Source: a candidate division FCPU426 bacterium
GTDB taxonomy: Bacteria > Oederibacteriota > Muellerivitia > Muellerivitales > Muellerivitaceae
Direction of reading: 5' to 3'
DNA: 64,000 nucleotides
NCBI GenBank assembly: GCA_003152075.1
Contig: PLZG01000093.1
Location: forward strand, 15,445-79,444
Below the pieces are notes generated by a model, which had not been told where the DNA came from, made no database searches, and was given only the letters and a program-made list of their open reading frames with translations. Made by a program: the position numbers and the translations under genes. Below, in pieces: positions 14,312 through 51,444 of the stretch; position 1 is the stretch's first letter, and every line of letters begins with the position of its first letter.

Positions 14312-14614
14312 TTAGAAGAACCTTCGAAGGAAATTGATCGAGAAGTGACAGACGTCGGGAATAAACAAGACAAGAAGGATGCCGAACAAGATGAAGGGGA
14401 TGATCATAATCCAATAGATGAGTTTTCCCTCCGATTTCAGGTCCATGTACTGGAAAAAGACCAGCCCAGCCATCACGAAGGCAATTGCGAAGATAGCAAC
14501 GTTGTTGGTCACGATGGGCAAATGGAGGAAAGTCACCCCTACCGCCGAAAGAGCCATCACCACAAGCACTGAAAATATCATCGTATGGTTATTGGAAGCC
14601 GTGGTTGAGTTCAT
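14312..14614 (-). CDS. Cytochrome c oxidase subunit IV, paralogue 1
   Basis: Three-TM 100-aa protein, paralogous to 12925..13224. Confidence 0.65.
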   Translation of the reverse strand: MNSTTASNNHTMIFSVLVVMALSAVGVTFLHLPIVTNNVAIFAIAFVMAGLVFFQYMDLKSEGKLIYWIMIIPFILFGILLVLFIPDVCHFSINFLRRFF

Positions 14615-14629
14615 TGATTCCTCCTGGGG

Positions 14630-15256
14630 TTAAGCTAAAAGATAAAGCATCGGGAACAGGAAAATCCAGACTACTTCAACGAAAGACCAGTAAATACCCG
14701 TAATGGCCACCCGGCCTTTCCAATTCCCCATCGATCCCGTTAAAGCCCTATTCAAGAGCAGGCCCAGAGCAACCAATCCACCCAGAATGTGGGTAGCGTG
14801 GATTCCTGTCATCAGGAAATAAAAGGACCAGAAACCACCGCTAGTGGGAAATTCACCATGAGCGAACTCAGCTGTGTACTCGAAAGCCTTAACGCCTAGA
14901 AAAAGCACACCCATGGCCATGGTCAGGACTAGGTACTTCTTGACGTTATCGTTGTTTTCCGCCCCTGCCGCACCAGAGGCTTTCATCATGAAAAAATTGC
15001 TGACGAGAAGAACCAACGAGTTAAGAGTGCCGGCGACCAGGTTCAGGTGTCGAGCCTCTTCGGACCACTCGGGATGAATCATGCGCATGAGGATGAAGGA
15101 ACCAAAGAGCCCCGCGAAAAGGACAATTTCGGAGGCGATCAGTGCCCAAATACCCAGCCGGCCCGCGGTCAATCCCGCCGGCGCCGAATTGTAACCTTCA
15201 GGACCCTCATTCTCGGGATAGTGGGGTGTCAATGGCAGGTTGGCGCTTTTATCCAT
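14630..15256 (-). CDS. Cytochrome c oxidase subunit III, paralogue 1
   Basis: Subunit III signatures (..FFMTGIHATHILGGLVAL..). Start set at MDKSANLP (ATG 15254-15256), just after the coxA stop. Confidence 0.8.
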   Translation of the reverse strand: MDKSANLPLTPHYPENEGPEGYNSAPAGLTAGRLGIWALIASEIVLFAGLFGSFILMRMIHPEWSEEARHLNLVAGTLNSLVLLVSNFFMMKASGAAGAENNDNVKKYLVLTMAMGVLFLGVKAFEYTAEFAHGEFPTSGGFWSFYFLMTGIHATHILGGLVALGLLLNRALTGSMGNWKGRVAITGIYWSFVEVVWIFLFPMLYLLA

Positions 15257-16943: not shown

Positions 16944-17626
16944 TGGGCTCCTCCATGTTCTTCTTTATCTTTTGCGGCAAGCCAATCATCAAAAGTTTTT
17001 TGGTCGTCCACCTGCAAAACTCCTGTCATACGGGTATGGCCGAAACCACAGATTTCGTCGCAAACCAAATGAAAAGTTCCCACTTGGTTTGTGTCAAACC
17101 AGCCATTGATCAGCCGAAGGGGCATGACATCCTGCTTCAAGCGCACCTCGGGCAGGAAAAAATCATGAATGACATCCAGGGAAGTCATGATGATGTGGAT
17201 TTTCTTACCGACCGGCACATGCAATTCGCGGTAGGAGGAAATCGCCGCAGGAGTATCGAACTTACCATCCTTATCGGGATAAAAGAAAGTCCAGTCAAAC
17301 TGCTTGGCTTGCACCTTTACCGTAATATCACAGGGCGGCAGGTCTTCTTTAACATCAGCCCAAGTCTTGCCTCCCCGGAAGTCGAGGAACAGATCAATTC
17401 CCAGGATGATGACGGAAAAAACGATGATCCATTGGATTTGGACCCAAGTATCACCCGTCTCATACTTAGCGGTTGTCCCCTTCTTTTGGCGGTATCTGAC
17501 CACCAAGAAAACAAGATAACCTTCCATTACAACGAAGAAGAACCCAGTGATGTAATAAATCAGTTTTAGCATATTGTCGATATCAGGAGCGAATGACGAG
17601 AGTGACAGGGGCAGGGCATCAAGCAT
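16940..17626 (-). CDS. ctaC: Cytochrome c oxidase subunit II (CuA, no fused cytochrome c)
   Basis: Two N-terminal TM helices. Cupredoxin domain with CuA motif H...CDEICGFGHTRM (C-x3-C-G-x2-H-x2-M). First gene of the operon coxB-coxA-coxC-coxD-coxC'-orf-coxD'. Confidence 0.9.
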   Translation of the reverse strand: MLDALPLSLSSFAPDIDNMLKLIYYITGFFFVVMEGYLVFLVVRYRQKKGTTAKYETGDTWVQIQWIIVFSVIILGIDLFLDFRGGKTWADVKEDLPPCDITVKVQAKQFDWTFFYPDKDGKFDTPAAISSYRELHVPVGKKIHIIMTSLDVIHDFFLPEVRLKQDVMPLRLINGWFDTNQVGTFHLVCDEICGFGHTRMTGVLQVDDQKTFDDWLAAKDKEEHGGAQ

Positions 17627-18026: not shown

Positions 18027-19478
18027 TTAAGCGAGGCCCGGCGCTGGAAAGCTCAGGGTATTTAAAAGGTAGTTTATGACATCCGCCGCGGAATAGGAAA
18101 GCTTGCTTCCTTTAAGAAAGGAAACGATCCGGGCCAAGTCATCGCCTGAAGTGACGAGGGGTTTTTCCAAGTAGCCGTTTTTTTGAGCTTGGGCCAATTT
18201 AATGCTCGCCATAAGCCCATTGCAAACGCATTTACGTCCTATGGTATCCTCCAACTTGCCTTCCTTTTGTAGATAGGACTCCACAGGCTCACCGGGGCAG
18301 CGGTAACCCACCGAACCGCCTTTTCTTTTAAAAGCGGTGCGCAGGTAACCTAAATCGCAAAGGCGTGGCCGGTCTTTATATTCCTGTGATTCGGACTGGG
18401 TGCCCTCCAAGCGCACGACCTTAAAGGGAAAGCCGGTGGGCGAGGCCACGGGGTCGGTGAAAACCTCTTCTCTTCCCCTGAGAGCTTTGGCGAAAACCCT
18501 TCGCTTGATCCGGTCCATCAGTCCAGATTCCTCGCAATAAGCAAACACGGTTCCTACTTGGATTCCCGTCGCGCCTTCGGCAAGCGCTTCTTTTAGTTTA
18601 TTTGGATCGGCATAGGAACCCGCAAGCCAGAAAGGCAATCCTAATTTCCGGAAAGCCGCCGTATCCACCTTATCTTTGGGGCCATAAACCGGCTCCCCTT
18701 TTTCATTAACGTGAAGCGGGCCTCTTGGCGGGGCATTGTGCCCTCCGGCGGTGGGGCCCTCGATGACGAACCCGTCCACGTGCCCAGCGGATTTTCGGGC
18801 CAGCGTGATCGCCAAAACTTCGGAAGAAACAATGGCGATGAACTTGGGGCGCCGCAAGGGGGGCAAGGTTTTTTCCAGGATATCCCTTGGATTAAAAGTC
18901 ATTTGAAAATCGTCCTCCGGCGCGGCTCCATGGACATTGAGCTTCAGCGAGACCTTCTGGTGCAACACCAGATGATCCAGTACCGAGGGAATGGCGCGGG
19001 GAATACCGGCTCCCATGAGGACATAATCAACCCCCGCCAACAGGGCACCGTAAAACGAAGGAAGGGTGGGAAGCTGGATTTTCTCCAGGTAATTGATCCC
19101 TACCAGCCCATCGTTTCCTTCTTTGGCAAGGAAAACCTCCACGAAATTAGCGGCAACGGTCAGTTCCAAAAGTTCCCGTGGTGGGTTCAAGGAAAACATG
19201 GGCGGATTCTTGAAGGGGATTTGTGAGGCTTTTCCACCGGGAATGTAGTAACGGTCTAAAATTCTCCCAACAATGGACGGATCGGGAAAATGCTCTAGGG
19301 CCCGCCGGACGGAGCCATCCAAGTCTCCCGCTTGTAGGCGCCGGGACATGACATTGTCCAGCGCTGTTCCCGAAACGACTCCCAATTGCCCTGTTTGGGC
19401 GACAGCCTTAGCCAGCTTCCAATTGGAAACGGCCACTCCCATTCCACCCTGTATGATGACGGGTTCGATCATATTCAC
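18027..19478 (-). CDS. Nitronate monooxygenase (NMO/2-nitropropane dioxygenase, FabK-like) family flavoprotein, long form
   Basis: N-terminal IIQGGMGVAVSNWKLAKAV (TIM-barrel FMN motif). 483 aa. Paralogous to 40735..42210. Confidence 0.75.
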   Translation of the reverse strand: MNMIEPVIIQGGMGVAVSNWKLAKAVAQTGQLGVVSGTALDNVMSRRLQAGDLDGSVRRALEHFPDPSIVGRILDRYYIPGGKASQIPFKNPPMFSLNPPRELLELTVAANFVEVFLAKEGNDGLVGINYLEKIQLPTLPSFYGALLAGVDYVLMGAGIPRAIPSVLDHLVLHQKVSLKLNVHGAAPEDDFQMTFNPRDILEKTLPPLRRPKFIAIVSSEVLAITLARKSAGHVDGFVIEGPTAGGHNAPPRGPLHVNEKGEPVYGPKDKVDTAAFRKLGLPFWLAGSYADPNKLKEALAEGATGIQVGTVFAYCEESGLMDRIKRRVFAKALRGREEVFTDPVASPTGFPFKVVRLEGTQSESQEYKDRPRLCDLGYLRTAFKRKGGSVGYRCPGEPVESYLQKEGKLEDTIGRKCVCNGLMASIKLAQAQKNGYLEKPLVTSGDDLARIVSFLKGSKLSYSAADVINYLLNTLSFPAPGLA

Positions 19479-20805: not shown

Positions 20806-21486
20806 ATGATGGGCATCATGAACAAGATCGATGCCCTGAGAAAAACGGAGATGTTCGGCTCCCTTTCGGGCGAGGAATTAAAAGTTGTCGCCAAATCCTG
20901 TGTGGAAAAACCCTTGAAAAAGGGCGAAACACTCTTTTGCGCGGGGGACGAGGCCCGGGGCCTTTACGTGATCGCGAAAGGTTCCTTGCGGGCTTTCCGG
21001 ACAAACGAGGACGGCCGGGAACAAGTCATCCACGTGGAGCGGGCCGGCACCACCATGGCCGAGGTCCCCGTTTTCGATGACCGGCCCTATCCCTCCACGG
21101 TGGTGGCGGAGGAGGACAGCGACGTCCTTTTCATTTCAAAAGCGGACGTGAAACGGCTATGCCTCCAACACCCGGCCATCGCCTTGTCGGCTTTGAAACT
21201 CCTGGCAGCTCGCCTCAGAAAAACGGCTGCCCTGGTTGAATCACTCTCCCTTCGTGAAGTCGACCAACGCCTGGCTGCTTTCCTCCTCCAGGAATTCAAG
21301 GAAAAGCGTTTGAAAAAACTCCAACTGCCGACCAATTCGGACATCGCAACCCGCCTAGGCTCGGTTCGGGAAGTGGTTTCCCGCGCCTTCGCCAAACTGG
21401 AATCCGAAAAACTGATCTCGGTCGACAAGCACCGCAACGCCGAACTGTTGAACGAGAAAGGTCTAGGCAGTTACTCCGGAAGTTGA
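20806..21486 (+). CDS. Crp/Fnr-family transcriptional regulator (no N-terminal Fe-S Cys cluster; Dnr/NnrR-like)
   Basis: cNMP-binding beta-roll (..GETLFCAGDEARGLYVIAKGSLRAF..) and C-terminal HTH (..TNSDIATRLGSVREVVSRAFAKL..). The start was chosen at MMGIMNK because the upstream GTG-initiated extension of the track ORF overlaps gene 20543..20731. Confidence 0.85.
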   Translation: MMGIMNKIDALRKTEMFGSLSGEELKVVAKSCVEKPLKKGETLFCAGDEARGLYVIAKGSLRAFRTNEDGREQVIHVERAGTTMAEVPVFDDRPYPSTVVAEEDSDVLFISKADVKRLCLQHPAIALSALKLLAARLRKTAALVESLSLREVDQRLAAFLLQEFKEKRLKKLQLPTNSDIATRLGSVREVVSRAFAKLESEKLISVDKHRNAELLNEKGLGSYSGS

Positions 21487-22206
21487 CCTTTCCCCAGCCA
21501 ATTTTTCCGCCATCGGAAAAAGTACGTTGTTTTCCAAATGGATGTGGTGATGCAGGTCCTCTTCCAGTTCAATGAAAGCCTGGTAAAAAGACCGGAAAGT
21601 GACGCAAGCGTCATCGGGCGGTGTAAAGTTCCCTGTCAATCGGCGCGCTTCCCTCAATTGTTCCCCTACCGTCTCGTGGTCAGCCATGAGAACAGCCCGG
21701 GGCCCCGCTTGGAATCCCTCAAAGGGGAAGAAAAGGCCTTCGTCACCTTCACCTTTTACCGATTTCTCCAAGGCCAAAAGATAGGGGAAGGCGATCTGTT
21801 CTTCTTTTAACATGTGGTGTTCCAATTCGTCGGCCATTTGGATGAAAACCTTTCGAACCGCCAAGAGGTCAGGATGGTTTTGTCCGTGAACCCGGGCCAC
21901 CTTTTCGGACAGTTTGTCGAGTAGGGCCAATTGCTTGCGGGTATAAACATGATGTTTTTCCAGAAGAAACTCCACCAACTCGGAAAGTTTTCGCTCGCTC
22001 CAGTCTTGTTCTCTCGAAGGGGATACAGGAAGACTCTCCAAGGAACGGACCACCTTTTCCACCGAAGCCCCCGCCTTGTCGCAAGCGTCCTTTAACGTCT
22101 TATTCCCCCCACAGCAGTAATCGATTTTCAAGCCTTCGAACAAAGGAATGGCGGACGGGTACTGAATCACGATACTGGCCACTGTTTGGTTGACTTCAGC
22201 TTTCAT
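21463..22206 (-). CDS. ytfE: Iron-sulfur cluster repair di-iron protein (RIC / YtfE / ScdA family)
   Basis: N-terminal ScdA_N motif (..FEGLKIDYCCGG..) followed by a hemerythrin-like di-iron domain (H..E/HxxxE ligands). Paralogous to 50710..51444. Convergent with the Crp/Fnr gene. Confidence 0.8.
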   Translation of the reverse strand: MKAEVNQTVASIVIQYPSAIPLFEGLKIDYCCGGNKTLKDACDKAGASVEKVVRSLESLPVSPSREQDWSERKLSELVEFLLEKHHVYTRKQLALLDKLSEKVARVHGQNHPDLLAVRKVFIQMADELEHHMLKEEQIAFPYLLALEKSVKGEGDEGLFFPFEGFQAGPRAVLMADHETVGEQLREARRLTGNFTPPDDACVTFRSFYQAFIELEEDLHHHIHLENNVLFPMAEKLAGERSTSGVTA

Positions 22207-40734: not shown

Positions 40735-42210
40735 TTATTTTGAGCCTAACCCCGCCGGGAATGCCCCCAAAAGATATTGAATGACATCCGCCGCGGAGTA
40801 CGAACTTTTGCCGCCCTTTAGAAACAAGGCGATTCGAGGCAGGTCGTCGCCTGAAGTAACCAGGGACTTTTCCGTATATCCACCCTTTTGTTCCTGTTCC
40901 AATCCCACAGCGGCCACCAGGCCGTTGCAAATGCATTTCTTCCCCTTTGTCTCTTCCTCTTTCCCTTCTTTTTGGAGGAAAACCTCCAAGGGTTCACCGC
41001 CACAACGATAACCTACCGAACCGTCTTTTCTTTTAAAGGTGGTCCTTAACAATCCCAGGTCGCAGGTGCGGGGTCGCGCCTGATATTCCTCCGCCTCGGA
41101 CAGGGTTCCTTCGAGTTGGGCCACCTTGAAGGGAAAACCCGTGGGCGAAGCGAGCGGGTCGGTAAATACCTCCGCGTGACCAGCCAAGGCCGCCTTAAAC
41201 GCTTTCTGTTTGACGCTGTCGGTAAAACCAGATTCCTCGCAATAAGCGAAGATGGTTCCCACCTGAACACCCGTCGCGCCCTGAGCCAGGGCCTCTTTTA
41301 ATTTATGGGGTTCGCCATATTGGCCGGCCAGCCAGAAAGGCAGTCCCAACTCACGGAAGGCGCCCAAATCCACCTCGTCCTTGGGGCCGTAAATCGGTTC
41401 GCCCTTTTCATTCAACTGTTGAGGACCCCGGGGTGGGGCGTTATGGCCCCCCGCAGTGGGAGCTTCGATGACGAATCCGTCCACGTGGCCGGAGGCTTTT
41501 TTAGCCAAGTTGACCGCCAAAATTTCCGATGAAACAATGGCAAGGAATTTGGGCCTTTTTAATTTAAAGGGACTTGGATTGAGAATGCTGAGCGGATTAA
41601 AGGATGTGTGGAAATCATCCTCCGAGGCGGCTCCGCGCACGTTGAGTTTGAGCGAAACTTCCTCATGTAAGGCGAGCTTGTCGAGGATCGCGGGGATGGC
41701 CCGTGGGATGCCCGCCCCCATGAGAACGTAATCTACCCCCGCCAGGAGAGCCCCATAAATGGAAGGCAAGGTGGGAAGCTGGATCTTTTCCAAATAGTTG
41801 ATCCCCACCAGGCCAGGGTGGCCTTCCTTGGCCAGGTACACCTCAACGAAATTGGCCGCCACCGTCAGTTCTAAAAGCTCCTGGGGAGGATTGGTCGAGT
41901 ACATCGTCACACTCTTAAAGGGGACACCCTTGGGCTTGCCGCCCGGGATGAAATAACGGTTTAAAATTCGTTGGGCGATATCGGGATTGGGGAAATGGGC
42001 CAGCGCCCGCCGCATATGGCCTTCCGGGTCCCCCTGTTGAAGGCGCCTGGCCAGTATGGTTTCCAGTATGGTTCCCGATACCACGCCCAATTGCCCTGCG
42101 AGGGATACGGCCCGGGCCAGCCTCCAATTGGAAACCGCGATTCCCATGCCTCCTTGAATAATTACCGGTTCAGTCATCCCACACTCCTTGTTTTTTTCGG
42201 GGCATTCCAC
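40735..42210 (-). CDS. Nitronate monooxygenase family flavoprotein, long form (paralogue 2)
   Basis: 491 aa. N-terminal MTEPVIIQGGMGIAVSNWRLARAV. Collinear similarity to 18027..19478 over the full length. Confidence 0.75.
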   Translation of the reverse strand: MECPEKNKECGMTEPVIIQGGMGIAVSNWRLARAVSLAGQLGVVSGTILETILARRLQQGDPEGHMRRALAHFPNPDIAQRILNRYFIPGGKPKGVPFKSVTMYSTNPPQELLELTVAANFVEVYLAKEGHPGLVGINYLEKIQLPTLPSIYGALLAGVDYVLMGAGIPRAIPAILDKLALHEEVSLKLNVRGAASEDDFHTSFNPLSILNPSPFKLKRPKFLAIVSSEILAVNLAKKASGHVDGFVIEAPTAGGHNAPPRGPQQLNEKGEPIYGPKDEVDLGAFRELGLPFWLAGQYGEPHKLKEALAQGATGVQVGTIFAYCEESGFTDSVKQKAFKAALAGHAEVFTDPLASPTGFPFKVAQLEGTLSEAEEYQARPRTCDLGLLRTTFKRKDGSVGYRCGGEPLEVFLQKEGKEEETKGKKCICNGLVAAVGLEQEQKGGYTEKSLVTSGDDLPRIALFLKGGKSSYSAADVIQYLLGAFPAGLGSK

Positions 42211-43089: not shown

Positions 43090-43212
43090 CCCAAACCCCA
43101 TTTCTGTTTTCCTCCCCCTTCTTCCATTCCCAAAAATGCTTTTTCAAAGCTTTTTTCATTGGCACTTCCCTTGCTTTAACCAATGACGACTGTCCAAAGA
43201 CCCCGCGCCTTG

Positions 43213-43232
43213 TATATGACATCTGTCATATA
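43213..43232. promoter_or_regulatory. Perfect 20-bp palindrome TATATGAC-atct-GTCATATA about 67 bp upstream of the cupredoxin operon
   Basis: 8-N4-8 inverted repeat with TGAC-N4-GTCA core. It is the best-conserved instance of the motif found upstream of both RIC genes and pirin. Confidence 0.5.
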
Positions 43233-43298
43233 GAGATAAATGAAGCGGGGATATCTTTCTGGCAGCCGAACTCAGTTTTTAATAAAAGGAGATTTCCA

Positions 43299-43997
43299 AT
43301 GAAGCTTAAAAAAAGTTTAATAAAAGCCGGAAGCAAAAAAACTCTTCGGACTTTATTCGGCGAGCTGTCCATCGGATTGGGGCTGAGCCTCTTCCTGGCC
43401 TCTTTCGCTTTCGCTGGGGAAGGTGCCACAGTATCCGGAAACATCCAAGTGAAGAAAGCCTACGTGGAAACCACCGGGGCCAAGAGCGACAAGGACGTGG
43501 TGGTTTACCTGGTGTCGGCTGAGAAAGGCGCTTCAGCGGCCCCCGTCGAACACGCCAAAATGAACCAAAAAAACCTCGTTTTCGTACCTCACGTTCTGGC
43601 AGTTCAAAAGGGCACCACCGTCGATTTCCTCAACGAGGACGCCGTCAACCATAACGTCTCTTCCCCCGCCGCCTGCTGTTCCTTCGACCTGGGCCAATGG
43701 GGCAAGGGAGTGACAAAAAGCTATAAGTTCGACTCGACGGGCGTGGCTCCCCTCCTTTGCAGCCTGCATCCAGAAATGGCCGCCTCGGTAGTGGTTGTCG
43801 ACACCCCCTATTACACGACGGCCTCCCTTATCACCAACAACGCGGAAAAAAAGCAATCGGCCAAGTACTCCATCAAGGGCGTTCCAGCGGGTGATTACAC
43901 CTTGAAGGTATGGAATGGCAAGTTGGTAGCCGCCGATCAAAAGGTGACCGTCACCGCGACCGGCGCCAAGGCTGATATCGACATCCACAAGAAGTAA
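43299..43997 (+). CDS. Periplasmic type-1 (blue) copper cupredoxin with C-terminal carboxypeptidase-regulatory-like (Ig-like) domain
   Basis: RBS AAAGGAG 7 nt before the ATG. Signal peptide. T1Cu ligand set: His (..NEDAVNHNV..) then C-x2-H-x2-M (CSLHPEM, amicyanin/pseudoazurin-like spacing). The C-terminus has a GDYTLKVWNG beta-sandwich motif. Confidence 0.6.
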   Translation: MKLKKSLIKAGSKKTLRTLFGELSIGLGLSLFLASFAFAGEGATVSGNIQVKKAYVETTGAKSDKDVVVYLVSAEKGASAAPVEHAKMNQKNLVFVPHVLAVQKGTTVDFLNEDAVNHNVSSPAACCSFDLGQWGKGVTKSYKFDSTGVAPLLCSLHPEMAASVVVVDTPYYTTASLITNNAEKKQSAKYSIKGVPAGDYTLKVWNGKLVAADQKVTVTATGAKADIDIHKK

Positions 43998-44024
43998 TCG
44001 GGAAAACCGTAAAGGAGAGCGGCC

Positions 44025-44564
44025 ATGGACTTCACGAATAAAGGCAAATGGATTTCGGCGGTGCTGGTGGTGGTGGCAGGGCTGACCCTGCCGGCCTTCA
44101 CCACGCCGGCCGCTCCCAAACCCGAGCGCCGCGACTTCAGCATCGTGGCCCGCAAGTACGCCTACGACCCCCCGATCATCAAGGTCAACCAGGGGGACGA
44201 GGTGCACGTAAAATTCGCTTCTCGGGACGTGACCCACGGATTTTTCATGGAAGGCTACGATGTCGAAGCCCTTTCCGAGGCCGGCAAATCCACCATCCTC
44301 TTCCGGCACCCTTCGATGACGGGTAACTTCACCCCCGCCGACGAGATCATCTTCACTGCCGATAAGCGCGGTAAATTTCGTTATCGCTGTTCCATGACTT
44401 GCGGCTATATGCACCCCTTCATGTTGGGAGTAATGATCGTGCAGCCCAATTCCCTTTTCGGCCAGGCCCTGGGGCTCATGACCGGAATCCTGCTGGCTGG
44501 CTTCATCCTGGTTTGGCCCGCGGGTAAGATCACCCCGAAAGCGCCGGAAGGAGCCCGCTCATGA
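44025..44564 (+). CDS. Membrane-anchored stand-alone CuA-type cupredoxin (COX2-like copper centre, no haem)
   Basis: N-terminal TM. Cupredoxin domain with His (VTHGF) and CSMTCGYMHPFM, which matches the binuclear CuA signature C-x3-C-G-x2-H-x2-M exactly. C-terminal TM. The stop overlaps the next start (ATGA). Confidence 0.55.
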   Translation: MDFTNKGKWISAVLVVVAGLTLPAFTTPAAPKPERRDFSIVARKYAYDPPIIKVNQGDEVHVKFASRDVTHGFFMEGYDVEALSEAGKSTILFRHPSMTGNFTPADEIIFTADKRGKFRYRCSMTCGYMHPFMLGVMIVQPNSLFGQALGLMTGILLAGFILVWPAGKITPKAPEGARS

Positions 44565-45028
44565 CCCGCAAACTTGAGGAACTCTCCCCTAAGGAAATGC
44601 TGGCCCTGGCCATTTCCATCGAGCAGTCCAACCAAAAGGCCCTGCATAACTTCTCCGAGATGTTCAACGGATATGACGATCAGGTTTCCAAGAATTTCGC
44701 GGAAATGTCCGTGGAGGAAGGCCGCCACGAGCAGATCTTACTGGAAAAATTCAAGAACATGTTCAAGGGGCCTGTTCCGGAAATAAGTAACTTCGACGTT
44801 GAGGAAGTGGTTGAAGCCATTGACTTTGACGACTCCGAGCACTTGATCTTCGACAGCTTGAAGGCCAAGCAAGTTTACCAATTGGCTTACGAGGCCGAAA
44901 AAAGGGCCAAGAGTTTTTACGAGAAGGCCATGAAAACCGTGAAAAACAAGGAATTGGCAGTGCTATTCAAGGAACTGGCCGCAATGGAAGGCGATCACGC
45001 GAATTGGCTGGAAAACAAAATCAAGTAG
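44561..45028 (+). CDS. Rubrerythrin/ferritin-like diiron protein (cytoplasmic)
   Basis: Two E...ExxH half-sites (..IEQ..EEGRH.. and ..EAEKRAK..EGDH..) in a ~150-aa four-helix-bundle-sized protein. No signal peptide. Confidence 0.6.
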   Translation: MTRKLEELSPKEMLALAISIEQSNQKALHNFSEMFNGYDDQVSKNFAEMSVEEGRHEQILLEKFKNMFKGPVPEISNFDVEEVVEAIDFDDSEHLIFDSLKAKQVYQLAYEAEKRAKSFYEKAMKTVKNKELAVLFKELAAMEGDHANWLENKIK

Positions 45029-45038
45029 GAGTGAAACC

Positions 45039-46568
45039 ATGAGTGAAGCCATCAACCCCAATCTAACTCCCCAATCCGTTCCAAGCCCGGTTCCCATACC
45101 CGCTGTCGTCCGGTCGGCCCCAACGCCGCTGACCCCTCCACCCGCCCGAGAGGGTTGGCGCATTGACCTTTTAAAGATGTTCCCCTTGCTCAAGTGGGTG
45201 GTGAAACAACGCTGGTTCCAGTTCGTGGTAATCCTTCCCAACCTATTCCTTTTCCTGGTCTTCTTGGCCGCCGGAATTTGGGGCACCCCGGTGGGCAACC
45301 GTAATATCTTGATCGTCTTCGTTTGGATTTTTTGGTGGTTCCTCCTCATCAGTGCCATGGTGCCCTTCCTTTCTCGCATTTGGTGCACCGTTTGTCCCTT
45401 CCCCTTCTTTGGAGAATGGATCCAACGTGGTTCCCTAACCACCCCCAAAATGGCCACTCCCGGCGCCAAAGGCACCAAGATTGGTATCAATCGCTATTTC
45501 GGTCTGAACCTGCGGTGGCCCAAGGCTCTTTCCAATATTTGGATGCAGAACATCGGTTTCCTCGGCCTTTGCACCTTCAGCGCCTTTTATCTCACCCGGC
45601 CCATCGTCAGCGTGATCGTCCTGGGCAGCTTGATCGTGGTGGCTACCGTGCTCCACGTGATTTATCGCCAAAGGGCCTTCTGCAATTACGTCTGTCCTGT
45701 CAGCGGTTTCTTAAGCCTTTATGCCATGAGTTCCATGACCGAGGTTCGTTCCAAGGATGCCGATGTCTGCCTGAAGTGCCACGACAAGAGCTGTCTGGTG
45801 GGAAGCGAGAGGGGTTGGGGATGTCCCTGGTTCAACTTCCCCAGCAAGATGGAACGAAATAACTATTGCGGCATGTGCATGGAATGCATTAAGTCCTGTC
45901 CCCATGACAACATGACTGTGAATCTGCGGCCCTTCGCCGCCGACACCAAACTCAAAGGCTACGATGAGGCCTGGAAGGCCTTTATCATGCTGGCCCTAGC
46001 CCTGGCCTACAGCGTCATTTACCTGGGCCCTTGGGCTTTTTTCAAAAACCTGGCCAACTACACCGAAAGCGGTGTGGGTCTTCCCGCCTTTATCGGCTAC
46101 GCCCTGGCCCTTTGGGCATTGCCTATGGTAATCATTCCGAGCATCTTCTCGGCATTCCACTGGATCGCGCGCAAGGTTGCTGGAGCCGAGCCGAAACCTT
46201 GGAAAGAATCTTTCCTACTCATGGCCTATCCCCTGGTTCCGCTGGGACTCTTGGCTTGGATCGCCTTCAGCGTACCCCTCATCTTTATCAACGGCAGCTA
46301 CATCCTGGTCACCATGTCCGATCCCTTTGGCTGGGGCTGGGACCTTTTCCATACAGCTCACACGGCCTGGTCGCCCGTCGTGCCTCAGTTGATGCCCACC
46401 ATCCAGGTCTTCATTATGGCCCTGGGGCTGATCCTCACCTTGAAATCGACTTTCAAACAAGCCGGGAAGGTTTATGAGGACGCCAAAGCCAAGGTGCGGT
46501 TCGCCGCCCCCATGGCGATTTTTTACACCGCCATCGTGCTGTTATTCATCCAGCTTTACGTGAACTGA
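45039..46568 (+). CDS. NapH/MauN/CcoG/NosR-C-like polytopic membrane protein with two [4Fe-4S] ferredoxin motifs
   Basis: Two membrane CxxCP motifs (IWCTVCPFP, FCNYVCPVSG), the hallmark of the NapH family. A soluble loop carries CLKCHDKSC...CPW and CGMCMECIKSCP cluster-binding motifs. About 10 TM helices. Pro-rich N-terminus. Confidence 0.65.
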   Translation: MSEAINPNLTPQSVPSPVPIPAVVRSAPTPLTPPPAREGWRIDLLKMFPLLKWVVKQRWFQFVVILPNLFLFLVFLAAGIWGTPVGNRNILIVFVWIFWWFLLISAMVPFLSRIWCTVCPFPFFGEWIQRGSLTTPKMATPGAKGTKIGINRYFGLNLRWPKALSNIWMQNIGFLGLCTFSAFYLTRPIVSVIVLGSLIVVATVLHVIYRQRAFCNYVCPVSGFLSLYAMSSMTEVRSKDADVCLKCHDKSCLVGSERGWGCPWFNFPSKMERNNYCGMCMECIKSCPHDNMTVNLRPFAADTKLKGYDEAWKAFIMLALALAYSVIYLGPWAFFKNLANYTESGVGLPAFIGYALALWALPMVIIPSIFSAFHWIARKVAGAEPKPWKESFLLMAYPLVPLGLLAWIAFSVPLIFINGSYILVTMSDPFGWGWDLFHTAHTAWSPVVPQLMPTIQVFIMALGLILTLKSTFKQAGKVYEDAKAKVRFAAPMAIFYTAIVLLFIQLYVN

Positions 46569-46583
46569 AAAGGGAGGATCAAC

Positions 46584-47552
46584 ATGAAATTCAGGGAAAT
46601 TATCTCCAGCGTCCTCGCGGTAGTGGCCGTGGTCGGGGCCTTCGCCATCCCCTTTGCTTACCAGAAGCAAAGAATGACCAGTGACCATAATGTGCGGACA
46701 ATCACCTTGACCGGTTTGGCCCCGCAAGGCATTTGGACCCAGGATGAGGTTAACGGCGGCAACTATTGGAAAGCCCATTTCAAACCCGCCGAGCTCAACC
46801 TTAAGGCGGGCGAACAGATCCGTCTGATCCTTCGCAGTGCCGACGTAGTCCACCGCTTTTACATGCCCCAATTGGGAATCGGCCCTATTGAGCTTGTTCC
46901 CGGCCATACCGAGGTGGTCAATTTCAAAGCCGACAAGGAGGGAATCTATCCTTACTACTGTACAGCTGTCTGCGGAGATTGCCATTTCCACATGCTAAAC
47001 ATGAGGGGATTGGTTGCCATCGGGAAAGAGATCGACACCAAAACCGCCCCCATCATCAATGAGCCTCTTTGCATGGTGAATATTACTTCGGACCTGCCTT
47101 CCTTCACGGACATCACCCAAAAGGGACATTTCCTGTTCCAAACCAGGGGTTGCGTCACTTGCCACGGGGTCGATGGCGCGGGAGGAATCCCCAACTTCAA
47201 TTACGTACGTGGTACCGTTCCGGCTTTGAACACCTTGGCCTCCAAGATGTCCCTGGGTAGCAAGGATGAAGTGGAGGCCTTTACTAAAGCCCTGGAAATA
47301 AAAGAAGGGCCCGCGAAGGACAAACCCGAACCAGGGCTCTCCAATTGGCCGCTTTCTTTCGCCCAGTATCAGTCGGTTGTAAAAACCATTGAGGGTGGCA
47401 GTCCGCCCTTGAAGGCTGACCCGAATGGGCCCGAACCTCCCCTTTTTATGCCGAGCTGGAAGGAAAACCTCGACCACGAACAGATCAATTCGATAATCGC
47501 CTTTCTTATCTCAGAGCAGAAGTTCGAGGAACACACGGGCTGGGGAAACTAG
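46584..47552 (+). CDS. Cytochrome oxidase subunit II-like CuA protein with fused C-terminal monohaem cytochrome c (caa3-type subunit II architecture, orphan)
   Basis: Single N-terminal TM. CuA signature H(RFYMP)...CTAVCGDCHFHM. C-terminal CVTCH plus Met ligand (LFMPSW). No subunit I gene is adjacent. Confidence 0.7.
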   Translation: MKFREIISSVLAVVAVVGAFAIPFAYQKQRMTSDHNVRTITLTGLAPQGIWTQDEVNGGNYWKAHFKPAELNLKAGEQIRLILRSADVVHRFYMPQLGIGPIELVPGHTEVVNFKADKEGIYPYYCTAVCGDCHFHMLNMRGLVAIGKEIDTKTAPIINEPLCMVNITSDLPSFTDITQKGHFLFQTRGCVTCHGVDGAGGIPNFNYVRGTVPALNTLASKMSLGSKDEVEAFTKALEIKEGPAKDKPEPGLSNWPLSFAQYQSVVKTIEGGSPPLKADPNGPEPPLFMPSWKENLDHEQINSIIAFLISEQKFEEHTGWGN

Positions 47553-47632
47553 TAGAATCTCGTCGGTAACCGGGCGCGGGTGGCGCGCTAATTAAAGCTG
47601 AACAGTAAATTTGTAACCTTGGGAGGGTGTAA

Positions 47633-49012
47633 ATGAGTAATCGTTCAATAAAAGCGATCCTGATCGGGATTTTAGGATGTATTGGTTTGATTGTCTGCGC
47701 GGCTCCCGCCCAGGCATTGCCAACCTTTGCCCGGCAGACAGGCATGTCCTGCGCGGCCTGCCACACGGTTTATCCCGAACTGACGACTTACGGGAGAACC
47801 TTCAAGCTCAACGGCTACACCACCAACAATTCCGATTCACTCAAGGACGGTGCGGATGAGACGGGGTACCGGTTGAATATCAGCAACACTCCCCCGATCG
47901 CGGCCATGCTTCAGGTTGCCGACGTATTTACCCATGCTCCTCAAACAGGCGGTTTAGTGGCCGCCAACTCGGATAACAACGGCACTTTGGAGTTTCCCAG
48001 TCAGTTCAGTCTTTTCTACGCGGGAGCCATCTCCCCGAAGATGGGGGCCTTCGTCCAGTTTACTTACGACTCTGGCTCAGGCTCTTTTGGCATGGACAAT
48101 ACGGACATCCGTATTGCCGACCGTTTTCAAGTGGCCAACACCGATCTGGTCTTGGGCTTAACCCTCAATAACAATCCCACCGTACAGGATATTTTTAACA
48201 ACATTCCGGCTTGGGGCTTCCCCTATGCGACAGGCAAATCGGCCATTACTCCCGCAACCGCCAGCATGATCGAGAGTCTGGGTGGTAGTGTCGGAGGATT
48301 GGGTCTTTACGCCTTTTGGAACCAGCTTTTATACGCTGAAATTTCAGCATACCGCACGGCTCCCCAAGGCATGGAAGCCGTGGGTGCCCCAGACATCCAG
48401 GGTTACGCTCCTTATTGGAGGGTGGCTTTGACCAAGGATTTCGAGACCAATTCCTTTGAAATCGGCGCTTTCGGGATGAACGCTAATACTTATCCAAACA
48501 GCGGGGATCCCACTCTGTTCACTCAAAATAATGTGGACGATATTGGGGTAGACGGTCAGTTCCAGTTCGTGGGCAAGGAACATCAATTGACGGTCAAAGG
48601 AAGTTGCATTTGGGAAAACCAGAAATTGGGCTATTCCAGTCCTGTAACGGTTATCGACCCCAGCGGACCGACGACCACCATCAGCTCAGTCGCGGCCAAT
48701 GCTACCGACACCTTCACGACCGCCAAGGCGGATATCACCTATTATTACGACCGTAAAGTCGGGGCAACGGTGGGCTATTTCACCAACTATGGTTCCGGCG
48801 ACACGGGCCTTTATTCCACCGCCAGCGGAACACCCGATAGCGCCGGCTGGGTGATCGAGGTGAATTACGTGCCTTGGTATAACACGAAATTCTCCTTGCA
48901 ATACACTATGTACGATAAGTTCAACGGTTCCGTGAATAATTACGATACCGTCCCTGGCCGTAACGCTTCGGATAACAACACCCTAATGGCAATGGCTTGG
49001 TTGATGTACTAA
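47633..49012 (+). CDS. cyc2: Cyc2-like fused monohaem cytochrome / outer-membrane beta-barrel porin (paralogue 2)
   Basis: Signal peptide. CxxCH (CAACH) within ~15 aa of the mature N-terminus. The N-terminal motif LPTFARQTGMSCAACH..TYGRTFKLNGY parallels VPMFARMYSYNCTMCH..KFGYNFRAAGY of the gene at 2219. The ~400-aa G/T/N/Y-rich barrel ends ..AWLMY. Confidence 0.6.
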   Translation: MSNRSIKAILIGILGCIGLIVCAAPAQALPTFARQTGMSCAACHTVYPELTTYGRTFKLNGYTTNNSDSLKDGADETGYRLNISNTPPIAAMLQVADVFTHAPQTGGLVAANSDNNGTLEFPSQFSLFYAGAISPKMGAFVQFTYDSGSGSFGMDNTDIRIADRFQVANTDLVLGLTLNNNPTVQDIFNNIPAWGFPYATGKSAITPATASMIESLGGSVGGLGLYAFWNQLLYAEISAYRTAPQGMEAVGAPDIQGYAPYWRVALTKDFETNSFEIGAFGMNANTYPNSGDPTLFTQNNVDDIGVDGQFQFVGKEHQLTVKGSCIWENQKLGYSSPVTVIDPSGPTTTISSVAANATDTFTTAKADITYYYDRKVGATVGYFTNYGSGDTGLYSTASGTPDSAGWVIEVNYVPWYNTKFSLQYTMYDKFNGSVNNYDTVPGRNASDNNTLMAMAWLMY

Positions 49013-49037
49013 TCTCTCTTTCAATTTTTCAGGAGAG

Positions 49038-49072
49038 AAGGCCGGGTTCCATTGGAATCCGGCCTTTTTTAT
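49038..49072 (+). terminator. Rho-independent terminator after cyc2-like paralogue 2
   Basis: AAGGCCGGGTTCCattgGGAATCCGGCCTTTTTT. Confidence 0.65.
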
Positions 49073-49135
49073 TATGACCGCTATCATCTTTTCCCTTACC
49101 TTTCAGACTAAAATGGATCTATCAGGGAGAGTTCA

Positions 49136-49798
49136 ATGGCACTAAACAAGATGACTGTCCCAAATGAAAAAAAGCGGTTCTTCACACCCTTATTAATAGA
49201 ATGGCTGGGGGCCTTGGTTTTATTCTCCTTACTCGCCCCTTCCTTAGCCTTGCCCCCGGCCCAAACTACCCCGGTAAATTCAGTCCACAAAAAAGACCCC
49301 CTTGTCTTGAAAGGCAAACAGCTTTACGCCGACTTGAGGTGCTTTTACTGCCACAAACTCAAGGGTCGGGGTGGTACGGTCGGCCCAGCCCTGGACAACG
49401 TGGGTTTCAGGCGCACCCAGGAATGGATGGCCCACCACTTCCGTGATCCCAAGGAAGTCTCTCAGGGAACCAAAATGATCAACCTCAAGCTGAAAGACAG
49501 CCAGGTTCAGGCCCTGGTGGCTTACATGAATAGCCTGGGAGGCTATACCTTCACCCCCCAAGCTCCGGATCTTTATAAAGCTAACTGTGCCGCTTGTCAT
49601 TCCCTCAACGGCGAGAGCGCGAATGCCACCGACTTGTCCAAGGAAGGAAAATTCCGGGATGTGGACTTCCTCATGGATTACATCCGGGATCCCGCCAACG
49701 TGAACTCGGAGGCCAAAATGATAAAATTTGAGGGTGTTTTGACCGAAGCCCAAATCAAGGATATCGCCGCTTACCTTTACAAGCAGAGCCGCAAATAA
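49136..49798 (+). CDS. Periplasmic dihaem cytochrome c (c4-like)
   Basis: Signal peptide; CFYCH and CAACH. About 45% identical over its length to the C-terminal domain of the cytochrome b at 5743..7374 (shared ..KGRGGTVGPALDNVGFRRTQEWMAHHFRDPKEVSQGTKM..). Confidence 0.8.
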   Translation: MALNKMTVPNEKKRFFTPLLIEWLGALVLFSLLAPSLALPPAQTTPVNSVHKKDPLVLKGKQLYADLRCFYCHKLKGRGGTVGPALDNVGFRRTQEWMAHHFRDPKEVSQGTKMINLKLKDSQVQALVAYMNSLGGYTFTPQAPDLYKANCAACHSLNGESANATDLSKEGKFRDVDFLMDYIRDPANVNSEAKMIKFEGVLTEAQIKDIAAYLYKQSRK

Positions 49799-49974
49799 AG
49801 GCGGTTTTCAATCCGCTAAATGATCTGGATCATATTCCCCTTTTCCGCGAAACATTAGGATACAACCTGTATTGCAGTTCGGGACCAAAACCCCGAGCTT
49901 GAACGGCGGAAAAGTATCAAATAAAAAAGGAGGCGGTCTTAACCAAAGTTAAAATCGACTCTGTTGGAATTTGG

Positions 49975-50015
49975 AAAACAAGGCCGGACCTGGCAAGGCT
50001 CCGGCCTTTTCTTTT
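49975..50015. terminator. Bidirectional intrinsic terminator
   Basis: aaaacaAGGCCGGAcctggcaaggcTCCGGCCttttctttt, flanked by an A-run upstream and a T-run downstream. Confidence 0.6.
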
Positions 50016-50121: not shown

Positions 50122-50700
50122 CTACCGCGCCGAAGTTGGATTCAACCCTGAGGACGGCCACCTCATCGGCTTCCTTGTGGAGGGATCCATGGCTTCCGGG
50201 GGTGCCACAGCGGCGACCACTACCACCTTCAGGGGCCCTTTTCGGCGAACCTCCCGGATAGCCGCCATCATGGTGGAAGCCGTGGCGATCCCGTCATCCA
50301 CCAGGATGACGATTCTCTTATCGACGCGCGACTTGGCGCCTAACCCGTAAAGCTTGCGTTTCTCCTTCAAGGCCTTTACCTGCCGCTGGATTTCGGTTTG
50401 TATCTTTTCCTCGGGATAACCCATTGAACGGGCATAGTGTCCCTCGTAATATTCACCGCTCTCGTTCACCGCTCCCAGGGCCAACTCAAGATTGCCGGGC
50501 GCGCCCACCTTGTGCACCAGGACCACATCCAGCTCCCCCTTCAGCTCGTCAGCGATAATCCTCCCTATGGGAACGGCCCCGTGGGGAATGGCCAGCACCA
50601 GTGGGTTTTCCCCCTTGTAGTCCACCAGCCTGCCAGCCAGCAATTGGGCCGCTTCCTCACGGTTTTTAAAAAAAGGTTTTTCCCAAGCGAAATGGTCCAC
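50122..50700 (-). CDS. Phosphoribosyltransferase-domain protein
   Basis: PRPP-binding motif VILVDDGIATASTM in a ~190-aa protein. Confidence 0.7.
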   Translation of the reverse strand: MDHFAWEKPFFKNREEAAQLLAGRLVDYKGENPLVLAIPHGAVPIGRIIADELKGELDVVLVHKVGAPGNLELALGAVNESGEYYEGHYARSMGYPEEKIQTEIQRQVKALKEKRKLYGLGAKSRVDKRIVILVDDGIATASTMMAAIREVRRKGPLKVVVVAAVAPPEAMDPSTRKPMRWPSSGLNPTSAR

Positions 50701-50709: not shown

Positions 50710-51444
50710 CTAATCTAAAAAACCCATCTGATTGGCCCGCTTCAAGAGAATGTTATTCTCCAAGTGGAGATGTTGAATGTTGTCTTTTTCCAGTTCCAGG
50801 AGGGCATCATAAAGGGGCTGGAGCATCATCCGCCTGGATTCGGGCGCGCGAAAATGGTCGGTGAGCCGGTCGATTTCCTTCCATTCCCTGTCCGTCATTC
50901 CATGCTCCCACTCCAACACGCGCAAGGGATGGTTGAAGGAGTCGTATTTACTGAAAGTTTGGGGAAGGGGCCGGTCGTGCAGAAGGCACTGTTCTGCTTC
51001 AATTAAGTAAGGAAAGACCACCTCTTCTTCGCGCCTCAAGTGGTTCTCCATTTCATCGGCCATAGTGTTGAAAAGACTATGGATGGTGGCTAGTTCGGGG
51101 GGCGGCCCCCCGGGACCCGTAACCACCTTATACATCAGACCTTTGACACGCCTCATTTGGGACCGAGCGTAGGTGTGGTGTTTCTTGAGGATGTAACCGA
51201 TCAGCTCAGCTAGTGGTTCCTGTCGCCAGTCCCGCTCCTTATACCATTCCTTTGGGGCAGGCTCGATTTTTTCCAGGGCCTCGGTAACCTCCTCCAATGG
51301 GATGCCGACGTAATAACAAGCGTCTTTCAAAGTCCGACCGCCCTCACAGCAATAGTCGATCCCGAATTTCTCGAATAGGGGGATGGACTCCTTCATTTCC
51401 ACCGCAATTTCAGCGACGCTTTGGGATGGATTAATCTTCGCCAT
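50710..51444 (-). CDS. ytfE: Iron-sulfur cluster repair di-iron protein (RIC/YtfE family), paralogue B
   Basis: N-terminal ..FEKFGIDYCCEGG.. ScdA_N motif plus a hemerythrin-like domain. Collinear with 21463..22206. Confidence 0.8.
   Translation of the reverse strand: MAKINPSQSVAEIAVEMKESIPLFEKFGIDYCCEGGRTLKDACYYVGIPLEEVTEALEKIEPAPKEWYKERDWRQEPLAELIGYILKKHHTYARSQMRRVKGLMYKVVTGPGGPPPELATIHSLFNTMADEMENHLRREEEVVFPYLIEAEQCLLHDRPLPQTFSKYDSFNHPLRVLEWEHGMTDREWKEIDRLTDHFRAPESRRMMLQPLYDALLELEKDNIQHLHLENNILLKRANQMGFLD

Follow-up and report, generated by a model that had tools for sequence, protein, structure and literature searches.

A conserved CuA/iron-sulfur membrane unit linked to a Cyc2-type porin: a candidate copper-based electron path across the envelope of a candidate division FCPU426 bacterium

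The described systems closest to the locus reported here include the rus operon of Acidithiobacillus ferrooxidans (cyc2-cyc1-orf-coxBACD-rus), the ferrous iron system FtrABCD with its cupredoxin FtrB and polyferredoxin FtrD, the NosR and NosGH/NapGH electron modules, the porin-cytochrome conduits MtrCAB and PioAB/MtoAB, and the cupric reductase CcoG/FixG of cbb3 oxidase assembly. The binuclear copper centre CuA, which recurs throughout this work, is chiefly known from haem-copper oxidases and N2O reductase and has also been reported in the qCuA nitric oxide reductase and in PmoD. We analysed a stretch of 64,000 nucleotides from the genome of a candidate division FCPU426 bacterium (contig PLZG01000093.1, positions 15,445 to 79,444; hereafter the window, to which all coordinates refer), in which a putative operon of six genes, g1 to g6, encodes a blue-copper protein, two CuA proteins, a di-iron protein, an iron-sulfur (Fe-S) membrane protein and a Cyc2-family outer-membrane cytochrome-porin, and is followed by a dihaem cytochrome gene, g7. 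The best-supported reading of the operon is a copper-based electron path that leads from the inner membrane's cytoplasmic face to the surface of the cell, built on what would be, by analogy, a NosR-like transmembrane electron module in which a CuA head replaces flavin mononucleotide (FMN); outward flow is the most likely direction, with a probability of roughly 0.45. All seven genes lie on the + strand and are as follows.

43299..43997, + strand: g1, secreted type-1 (blue) copper cupredoxin with a plastocyanin/azurin-type domain and a C-terminal CarboxypepD_reg-like beta-sandwich
44025..44564, + strand: g2, small CuA cupredoxin with the exact CuA spacing C122-x3-C126-x3-H130-x2-M133 and one membrane helix at each end
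44561..45028, + strand: g3, cytoplasmic rubrerythrin-like di-iron protein, an optional subunit, whose start overlaps the g2 stop by 4 bp
45039..46568, + strand: g4, nine-helix membrane Fe-S protein, Fer4_5/NapH-like (238 clusters at E<=1e-30)
46584..47552, + strand: g5, membrane-anchored CuA (COX2-type) domain plus monohaem cytochrome c domain, with one N-terminal helix
47633..49012, + strand: g6, Cyc2-family outer-membrane cytochrome-porin of 459 amino acids (aa) with a single CxxCH and a hydrophobic N-terminal leader
49136..49798, + strand: g7, dihaem c4-like cytochrome with two cytochrome c domains, past the first terminator

Like the NosR and NosGH/NapGH modules, the locus encodes a membrane protein with two Cys-x-x(-x)-Cys-Pro motifs and cytoplasmic Fe-S sites (NapH superfamily, by weak matches) and appears to place a redox head on the outer face that serves copper proteins, and the trio of g2, g4 and g5 occurs in three clade II nosZ clusters; unlike in those modules, the head is a CuA cupredoxin rather than FMN (NosR) or a NapG/NosG ferredoxin, g4 has nine helices with a five-helix C-terminal half that belongs to no assigned family, and the window's genome has neither NosZ nor NosD. 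With the rus operon it shares the presence in one locus of Cyc2, a dihaem c4-type cytochrome, a blue-copper protein and a CoxB-like CuA protein, but haem-copper subunits I, III and IV are replaced by a second CuA protein and the Fe-S membrane and di-iron proteins, the gene order differs, and electron flow is probably opposite. A dedicated route from the inner membrane through the periplasm to an outer-membrane porin that carries a redox cofactor is common to MtrCAB and PioAB/MtoAB, whereas here the porin has 16 strands and a single haem, and the carriers are copper centres instead of multihaem cytochromes. FtrABCD likewise pairs a cupredoxin with a membrane polyferredoxin as its proposed electron partner; the present locus differs in having CuA centres in place of a single cupredoxin and in its Cyc2 porin, and domain scans found neither the Ftr1 permease nor P19 among the seven genes or in the related Desulfobacterota loci. 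CcoG/FixG, too, is a Fer4_5-type polyferredoxin membrane protein tied to copper proteins, but g4 is without FixG_C and Fer4_18 and is fused to CuA domains in relatives or, according to modelling, bound to them.

The copper and iron sites of the encoded proteins were evaluated by scans with Pfam and NCBIfam curated models at the models' own cut-offs, and ligand conservation was determined from homologues in 80 related loci. The binuclear CuA ligand pattern H...C-x3-C-x3-H-x2-M was found in both g2 and g5. All 63 homologues of g2 retain the ligands H71, C122, C126 and H130, and 98% retain M133; in g5, H90, C126, C130 and H134 are kept in 94-98% of homologues, the Met at +3 is M137 together with a three-residue insert, the conserved Met of the homologues aligning with M140, and in a set of 28 homologues these four CuA ligands are invariant, as are the haem ligands C190, C193 and H194 and the distal M289. 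The two domains of g5 matched Pfam COX2 (36.7 bits; cut-off 22) and Cytochrom_C (38.5; cut-off 21.3); against the CoxB model TIGR02866, which has a cut-off of 147.7, g5 reached 63.1 bits and g2 reached 25.8. No COX1 gene lies within the operon, and the COX1 of this genome is in a separate cox operon (COX2, COX1 and two COX3 genes, 13708-17626, - strand), as the sequence-only reading had recognised in placing the canonical oxidase genes elsewhere in the window. g1 matched Pfam Copper-bind at 27.7 bits (cut-off 21.2) with its ligands H118, C154, H157 and M160 kept in 96-100% of 24 homologues; its N-terminus is signal-peptide-like, and we propose that it acts as a periplasmic shuttle. The di-iron ligands of g3 (E21, E53, H56, E113, E143 and H146), which matched Pfam Rubrerythrin PF02915 at 53.7 bits (cut-off 22.8), are invariant in 12 homologues; the protein contains no cysteine and therefore is without the rubredoxin-like Cys4 part of rubrerythrins, being of the 'erythrin' type, as is the N-terminal domain of MbfA (score 64.8 bits, cut-off 450). 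Approximately 13 of the 80 loci carry g3, each time between g2 and g4. The gene content and cofactor motifs that had been read from the letters alone were thus confirmed by family scans and ligand conservation; none of the NCBIfam curated models reached its cut-off for g1-g6, so that routine annotation leaves all six unnamed.

The N-terminal half of the membrane protein g4 is NapH-like, its helices 2 and 4 each carrying a Cys pair at the cytoplasmic end; a ferredoxin-like domain in the cytoplasm, a C-terminal half of five helices and an invariant periplasmic loop (S427-D435) complete the protein. Eleven Cys residues are invariant or nearly so (C116, C119, C215, C219, C244, C252, C262, C277, C280, C283 and C287), and no histidine is conserved across the homologues. 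The initial description of g4 as having two CxxCP and two 4Fe-4S motifs needs correction on both counts: there is one CxxCP, the second Cys motif being CxxxCP, and of the Fe-S motifs the second is canonical, whereas the first is atypical (C244-x7-C252-x9-C262), its C247 being kept in only 54% of homologues. The AlphaFold2 model of g4 alone, with a predicted local distance difference test (pLDDT) of 88 and a predicted template modelling score (pTM) of 0.86, has nine helices, and the model and the positive-inside charges both place the Cys pairs and the ferredoxin domain on the cytoplasmic side. Its likeness to NapH, CcoG and NosR holds at the level of the NapH superfamily, of which g4 is by its sequence a relative only: it has nine helices against the four of NapH, and it scored far below the NapH/MauN cut-offs (27.9 bits against 213 for TIGR02163 and 27.0 against 234 for NF007013). 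A Pfam scan found no FMN_bind in g4, unlike NosR, and the corresponding periplasmic head is the separate or fused CuA protein g2; the same scan found neither Fer4_18 nor FixG_C, both of which that library detects in a true CcoG (L108). The idea that g4 is a NosH-NosB fusion was dropped; a separate NosB-like gene family (F76) is present in nos loci. Among solved chains, no relative of g4 was detected by sequence (E<=1) or by Foldseek (E<=0.001), and a wide VIA search yielded nothing but generic helical bundles, at residues 320-509 (best Z 9.8, where about 13 is advised for helical proteins), which does not show a new fold. In the protein atlas, g4 matched only unnamed Fer4_5 clusters, one of them wrongly labelled 'cyclic nucleotide-binding'.

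In 15 of 67 locus homologues, from Desulfobacterota, Verrucomicrobiota, Chloroflexota and Thorarchaeota, g2 and g4 form a natural fusion with g2 at the N-terminal end. Among 1.84 billion protein representatives, the g4 family comprises 238 clusters at E<=1e-30; among the matches listed, 113 family representatives have at least 430 aa and 62 of these have at least 590 aa, which suggests added N-terminal or inserted domains, and the exact CuA motif is present in 24 of the 62. In a three-chain model of g4, g2 and residues 1-165 of g5, the interaction prediction score from aligned errors (ipSAE) was 0.79, compared with 0.00 for the best of three controls, with partner pLDDT of at least 80 and run-to-run contact agreement of at least 97%; of the calibration sets, 58 of 80 solved complexes and 2 of 110 mismatched pairs passed, counts that hold only roughly for three chains with user-supplied alignments. 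The modelled g5 helix lies against helix 1 of g4, the CuA loops of g2 (124-127) and g5 (128-132) touch face to face, and g5 contacts the invariant periplasmic loop of g4 at 429-434. The model supports, rather than shows, that g4, g2 and g5 bind one another, and we propose g2 as the putative periplasmic redox head of the predicted complex. Two further g4 fusions were observed, P0366 (850 aa) and P0248 (818 aa), one with an N-terminal cytochrome c554-like multihaem domain and the other with two cupredoxin domains and a COX2 domain preceding g4.

To determine the distribution of the unit, g4 was searched in one genome per prokaryotic species with tblastn confirmation, and locus details were taken from the best 80 of the 445 stretches confirmed in bacteria and archaea. 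Within these 80 loci, a g2-like CuA gene adjoins g4 in nearly all whose contig reaches that far, being absent in L005, L021 and L081 at contig ends, and a second, g5-like CuA gene follows g4 in most, revealing a conserved unit and not a chance neighbourhood. Carriers include Planctomycetota, Acidobacteriota, Desulfobacterota, Myxococcota, Verrucomicrobiota, Gemmatimonadota, Armatimonadota, Chloroflexota, Bacillota and Actinomycetota, and among archaea Thorarchaeota and Nitrososphaerota (Ca. Caldarchaeum); in the host's own family the unit is patchy (6 of 24 genomes searched). Within the part of the g4 tree formed by double-membraned bacteria, the branching conflicts with the phyla, a Verrucomicrobiales sequence for example falling within a Desulfobacterota group, which suggests horizontal spread of the unit. 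The tree divides into two halves, one from double-membraned bacteria and the other from single-membraned bacteria and archaea (Shimodaira-Hasegawa-like approximate likelihood ratio test 99). A Cyc2-like gene lies within 7 kb of g4 in 19 of the 33 rows of the double-membraned half, with a blue-copper gene alone in seven more, compared with none of the 21 rows of the other half; the full PxFAR[QK][TY]...CxxCH motif is present in 12 of 17 Cyc2-like neighbours and near variants in four of the other five, the fifth (L010) being cut by a contig end. Cyc2 is therefore not the centre of the system, as had been supposed: its core is the CuA/Fe-S/CuA complex predicted above, whose genes occur without Cyc2 in archaea, Chloroflexota and Bacillota. 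In two Thorarchaeota loci (L063 and L076), a fused g2-g4 gene and a small CuA gene stand between repeated pairs of genes for a GlcD-like flavin adenine dinucleotide (FAD) dehydrogenase and a GlcF/HdrD-like CCG Fe-S protein.

By its published definition, Cyc2 is a 16-strand OprO/OprP-like porin of at least 365 aa that bears a signal peptide and, immediately ahead of its only CxxCH, the motif AxPxFAR[Q/K][T/Y], with PxL four residues past the His (Keffer et al., bioRxiv 10.1101/228056). g6 has these motifs at the required spacing (A28-L-P-T-F-A-R-Q-T36, C40-A-A-C-H44 and P48-E-L50), and P30, F32, Q35, T36, C40, C43, H44, P48 and L50 are invariant in 53 homologues. It has no family match in Pfam or NCBIfam; its AlphaFold2 model (pTM 0.81) contains 16 long strands and was matched by Foldseek to OmpF, OmpT, OprP (2o4v) and OprO (4rjw) at E values of about 1e-7 to 1e-8. 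By motif, length and modelled strands alike, g6 is a true member of the Cyc2 family under all published sequence criteria, in agreement with its first identification; the alternative that it is an ordinary porin with an unconserved CxxCH fails because of the invariant motifs. The link of Cyc2-type genes with the unit extends over at least nine phyla. Other phyla have their Cyc2 gene upstream of the core, adjoining that for the cupredoxin, whereas in the window's lineage (L003, L004 and L105) it is of a different subtype and lies downstream, which suggests that a Cyc2-type gene was recruited twice. This difference, together with the 80-bp gap ahead of g6, is what might be expected if there were no single system and g6 and g7 formed an independent cyc2-cyc1 unit beside an unrelated copper/Fe-S operon. 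Such mere adjacency is very improbable, given the recurrence of the link across phyla: g6 directly follows g5 in all three related loci at 57-70% g6 identity, and consensus scanning and folding found no terminator between g5 and g6, with a strong one 3' of g6.

The direction of electron flow was evaluated from the genomic contexts of the core. A GltD/NfnB-like NAD(P)H module with FAD and Fe-S sites is inserted in the g4 homologues P0243, P0250, P0259, P0265 and P0286, at the cytoplasmic loop just ahead of the ferredoxin domain, and insertion at this ferredoxin-side loop confirms that the loop is cytoplasmic. P0250 and P0259 also bear an N-terminal CuA motif, and P0286 is preceded by two CuA genes; furthermore, a GltD-like module is encoded by a neighbouring gene in L034, L039 and L046, and in L034 a single strand carries the blue-copper gene, Cyc2, g2, g3, g4, g5 and the GltD-like gene. 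NAD(P)H has a potential of about -320 mV and CuA one of about +250 mV, so that only outward flow is possible in these variants, and the inserted flavoprotein module thus favours export over Fe(II) oxidation. The eukaryotic-type transmembrane NAD(P)H reductases NOX, FRE and STEAP offer a working analogy for these variants: they likewise combine a cytoplasmic NAD(P)H flavoprotein, a membrane domain and an outer redox site in one chain (as in P0250 and P0259), but there is no sequence kinship, Fe-S and CuA centres replace the two haems, and the g4 of the window has no flavoprotein module. Electron bifurcation at the NfnB-like module was considered and dropped as pure speculation.

The second context is N2O reduction. 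The trio lies directly beside clade II nosZ, nosD and nosL in L049, L052 and L056 (NosZ 732-920 bits; cut-off 625), and since NosZ consumes electrons, these clusters count for electron supply and outward flow. In the window's own genome, no NosZ or NosD was found, and tblastn with the L049 NosZ and NosD matched only the CuA domains of g5 and g2. The possibility raised by the sequence-only reading, that the operon is a routine nos variant, is therefore borne out as far as a nos link in three lineages, but the unit is neither routine there nor an annotated nos accessory.

In the outward path that we favour, g4 would hold the Fe-S clusters at the cytoplasmic face, g2 would provide the periplasmic CuA, and g5 a second CuA and haem c; soluble blue-copper g1 would ferry electrons between this inner-membrane complex and g6 in the outer membrane, with the di-iron protein g3 as an optional cytoplasmic partner. 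Electrons would pass from a cytoplasmic donor or the quinone pool to Fe-S, CuA, CuA/haem c, blue copper and the Cyc2 haem, and finally to a high-potential oxidant at or beyond the outer membrane. Reported Cyc2 haem potentials range from -130 to +560 mV, and the direction of flow is therefore not fixed by them. The conserved unit, its metal ligands, the three-chain model, the topology, the recurrent Cyc2 link and the copper-centre maturation genes near the trio (see below) all count for this reading. Of this picture, the genes, their ligands, synteny, fusions and contexts are observed, the complex is a model, and the donor, the acceptor and the direction are inferred. A bolder version, which we put forward tentatively, is that g2-g4-g5 represent a new class of transmembrane electron-transfer machine without membrane haem, in which NAD(P)H, ferredoxin or quinol would deliver electrons through Fe-S to two stacked CuA centres outside, with Cyc2, in double-membraned bacteria, as a two-way gate run in reverse as the outlet; in archaea, Bacillota and Sysuimicrobiota the same machine might be the missing donor of clade II N2O reductase.

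Several observations weigh against outward flow. All Cyc2 proteins characterised by biochemistry are Fe(II) oxidases with inward electron transfer, g6 homologues with 42-48% identity occur in uptake contexts (cyc2 with a dihaem c gene near cbb3 assembly genes, high-potential iron-sulfur protein genes or Rieske/cytochrome b genes), and g6 itself is trailed by the dihaem c gene g7. The g4 of the window has no NAD(P)H module; its cytoplasmic neighbour is g3, and rubrerythrins, the family of g3, normally accept electrons. The nosZ-linked and most NAD(P)H-linked relatives are only about 40-45% identical to g4, and L049, L052, L056 and L039 fall in the other half of the g4 tree, the Cyc2-linked L034 being the exception in the window's half. 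Moreover, a bilayer-crossing cofactor is not evident: the helices of g4 are without conserved His, Met or Cys residues, and its helix region has only the two Cys pairs at cytoplasmic helix ends and many invariant tryptophans. The terminal acceptor would be a proposed oxidant, and co-transcription and expression of the genes are putative.

These points lend weight to a serious rival, inward oxidation of Fe(II) or another extracellular donor, in which electrons would pass from Cyc2 to g1, to g5 and g2, to g4 and on to g3, with O2 or H2O2 as oxidant, or from the copper proteins to the aa3 oxidase encoded elsewhere; the operon would then be an analogue of the rus operon with CoxA replaced by an Fe-S/di-iron sink. 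We hold this to be possible, though less likely than outward flow. Consistent with it are the Cyc2 motifs of g6, the Fe(II) oxidation by characterised Cyc2 proteins, the resemblance of the g6-g7 pair to cyc2-cyc1, and the occurrence of the stretch in peat metagenomes of several studies. The window also contains a second, divergent Cyc2-like gene (2219-3487; AVPMFARMY...CTMCH, 422 aa), followed by genes for a monohaem cytochrome c (3502-3957), a Rieske protein (5240-5743) and a cytochrome b-dihaem cytochrome c fusion (5743-7374), in addition to the aa3 oxidase, and a 48%-identical g6 homologue in another genome (L106) lies in a context like that of this second gene. g3 homologues keep the di-iron ligands, sites of this kind in rubrerythrins are of high potential, and electrons entering from the outer side with protons used inside would build membrane potential; in the FtrABCD model, a cupredoxin hands Fe(II) electrons to the polyferredoxin. 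However, inward flow is impossible in relatives that have an NAD(P)H flavoprotein inserted or next to the unit, the nosZ contexts require electron supply, g3 is absent from most loci, electrons entering from outside would have to move uphill and also against the membrane potential to reach quinone or NAD(P)+, and many carriers, including sulfate-reducer lineages, are not known iron oxidisers. Of the earlier proposal of an iron-oxidation or extracellular electron-transfer module, the real Cyc2 and the conserved unit stand, whereas the contexts of the core favour export; its further claim of an electron module that bypasses haem-copper subunit I is upheld, because the motifs were confirmed, g6 is by sequence a real Cyc2, the unit is conserved and no prior description was found.

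The genes that accompany the trio include those for Sco1/SenC, a TlpA-like thioredoxin, a PCYCGC protein, DUF1573 and NosL; Sco1/SenC, TlpA-like, PCYCGC and NosL genes are copper-centre maturation genes, and TlpA-like domains are fused to the unit in P0249 and P0259. Many loci begin with genes for a histidine kinase and a sigma-54 response regulator. A Desulfobacterota-type set, exemplified by L027 9414-14588 (Desulfoluna limicola) and also found in L019, L020, L023, L025 and L032, continues with genes for an FtsX/MacB-like permease, an FtrD-like (PF10080) membrane protein, an ABC ATPase, a pair of NosL copper chaperones and an unassigned protein of 332 aa; it is reminiscent of metal uptake clusters of the P19 type, without P19 or Ftr1. 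The adjoining maturation genes and the TlpA-like fusions would suit a machine for copper-centre maturation or maintenance, in which a CcoG- or NosR-like g4 would send reducing power to the periplasm for the reduction of Cu(II) or site cysteines, or for upkeep, and the CuA and blue-copper proteins would be clients that then serve oxidases encoded elsewhere. Polyferredoxins of this superfamily accompany copper enzymes, as CcoG does cbb3 and NosR/NosH do NosZ; a NapH-superfamily polyferredoxin has been published beside cox genes and a cupredoxin gene in Oxyplasma, and the operator motif described below is common to the stress and repair genes for RIC, DnaK, pirin and nitroreductase. We nevertheless consider a maturation role unlikely: the permanent CuA-g4 fusion in many lineages and the intimate three-chain model fit fixed redox partners better than transient clients, FixG_C, Fer4_18 and FMN_bind were undetected in g4, and dedicated chaperones have genes of their own.

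The regulatory features of the locus, all predicted, are listed below.

43213..43232, no strand assigned: operator-like palindrome TATATGACA-TC-TGTCATATA, with perfect 9-nt arms (43213-43221 and 43224-43232) and a 2-nt spacer
49034..49070, + strand: terminator-like hairpin after g6, -27.2 kcal/mol, z-score -5.8, followed by six U; 0 of 200 shuffles as stable
49980..50008, + strand: second, weaker terminator-like hairpin, centroid -20.9 kcal/mol; the folded 61 nt have a minimum free energy of -22.7 and a z-score of -2.5, with a U-rich tail

The intergenic gaps from g1 to g7 are 27, -4, 10, 15, 80 and 123 bp, and an AGGAG- or GGGAG-type, Shine-Dalgarno-like ribosome-binding site precedes each gene. 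Of the six tight genes first described, g1-g5 are indeed closely spaced, whereas g6 is set off by 80 bp. Both terminators of that description were recovered by RNA folding, the stronger after g6 and the weaker after g7, and the latter may serve a second time for the convergent gene 50122-50700. A consensus promoter/terminator scan found no sigma-70-like promoter upstream of g1, and the same scan missed the hairpin after g6. The single perfect 20-bp palindrome upstream of g1 was also confirmed, with one copy in the whole genome, which is 99.97% complete by marker genes; its core, ATGAC-N4-GTCAT, ends 69 bp ahead of the g1 start codon. This core occurs four times in the window (43216, 51520, 55372 and 58668) compared with 0.04 expected from shuffles, and 27 times in the 4.1-Mb genome compared with about four expected from base composition, an approximately seven-fold enrichment; 18 of the 27 sites were called intergenic and mostly precede a start codon by 15-80 bp, with TATGAC-N4-GTCATA as the extended consensus. 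The 5-N4-5 geometry fits CRP/FNR sites, which makes an assignment to this type plausible from the letters of the motif, but the core differs from the consensus TTGAT-N4-ATCAA. Seven CRP/FNR-type genes were found in the genome, two of them among the motif sites (contigs C5 and C35). Downstream of the sites lie genes for RIC (a di-iron repair protein, 50710-51444), pirin, a P-type ATPase, a DedA-type protein, DnaK, a nitroreductase/TetR pair, short-chain and zinc dehydrogenases, a cytochrome c and a MacB-type transporter, and from these genes the regulon looks like one of stress and redox functions rather than of anaerobic respiration. The 20 public sequencing runs listed with 43200-49100 are all of DNA type and mostly peat metagenomes, with no RNA run among them.

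The dihaem c4-like cytochrome g7 was confirmed, past the first terminator and with two haem c domains. It is 52.5% identical to the C-terminal dihaem domain (6841-7371) of the cytochrome b fusion near the second Cyc2-like gene and is therefore a detached paralogue of that bc-complex subunit; its score against the NCBIfam SoxX model (69.2, just over the cut-off of 61) arises as two half-matches. g7 is not syntenic in relatives, Cyc2 genes elsewhere are commonly trailed by a g7-like dihaem cytochrome gene, and its membership of the unit is uncertain. Other genes of the window were recorded in passing. Two ScdA/RIC-type di-iron Fe-S repair genes are present (21463-22206 and 50710-51444), with the palindrome upstream of the second only; downstream of the cox operon on the - strand are genes for an AurF-like di-iron oxygenase (12004-12837) and a fatty-acid desaturase (11061-12002); and a nitronate-monooxygenase-like domain occurs in two long paralogues of 483 and 491 aa (18027-19478 and 40735-42210).

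All parts of the system come from known superfamilies, and as a whole it resembles NosR/NapH modules and porin-cytochrome conduits. What is new is the assembly: two CuA centres on a NapH-like protein, no catalytic subunit, and a recurrent link to Cyc2. The claim that this combination is undescribed holds for the curated models, none of which names the unit, and for the full-text literature searched, subscription-only papers being outside the search, in which no description was found; a published Ca. Tenderia set of one polyferredoxin with three hypothetical proteins is a possible counterpart, and a November 2026 review of iron-oxidation proteins makes no mention of CuA, polyferredoxin or NapH.

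Cyc2 is widely used as a marker gene of microbial iron oxidation, for example in FeGenie-type surveys, and the published view is that function is uncertain for many Cyc2 homologues, above all for cluster 3. In at least nine phyla, a considerable number of Cyc2-like genes are linked to a conserved copper/Fe-S complex and not to a terminal oxidase, and the other genomic contexts of this complex point to export of electrons. With a copper-based path across the envelope, a cyc2 gene may therefore not always mean iron oxidation; if export is true, some cyc2 counts would misreport iron oxidation and unit-linked cyc2 genes would be invalid as markers. The predicted complex itself, with two CuA centres and a family of 238 clusters in bacteria and archaea, has no name and no solved relative was found for it in the structure searches described above. 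In some lineages it may supply electrons to clade II NosZ, which bears on N2O emissions, and Desulfoluna limicola ASN36 (L027), a cultivated carrier with a complete genome, makes the question testable.

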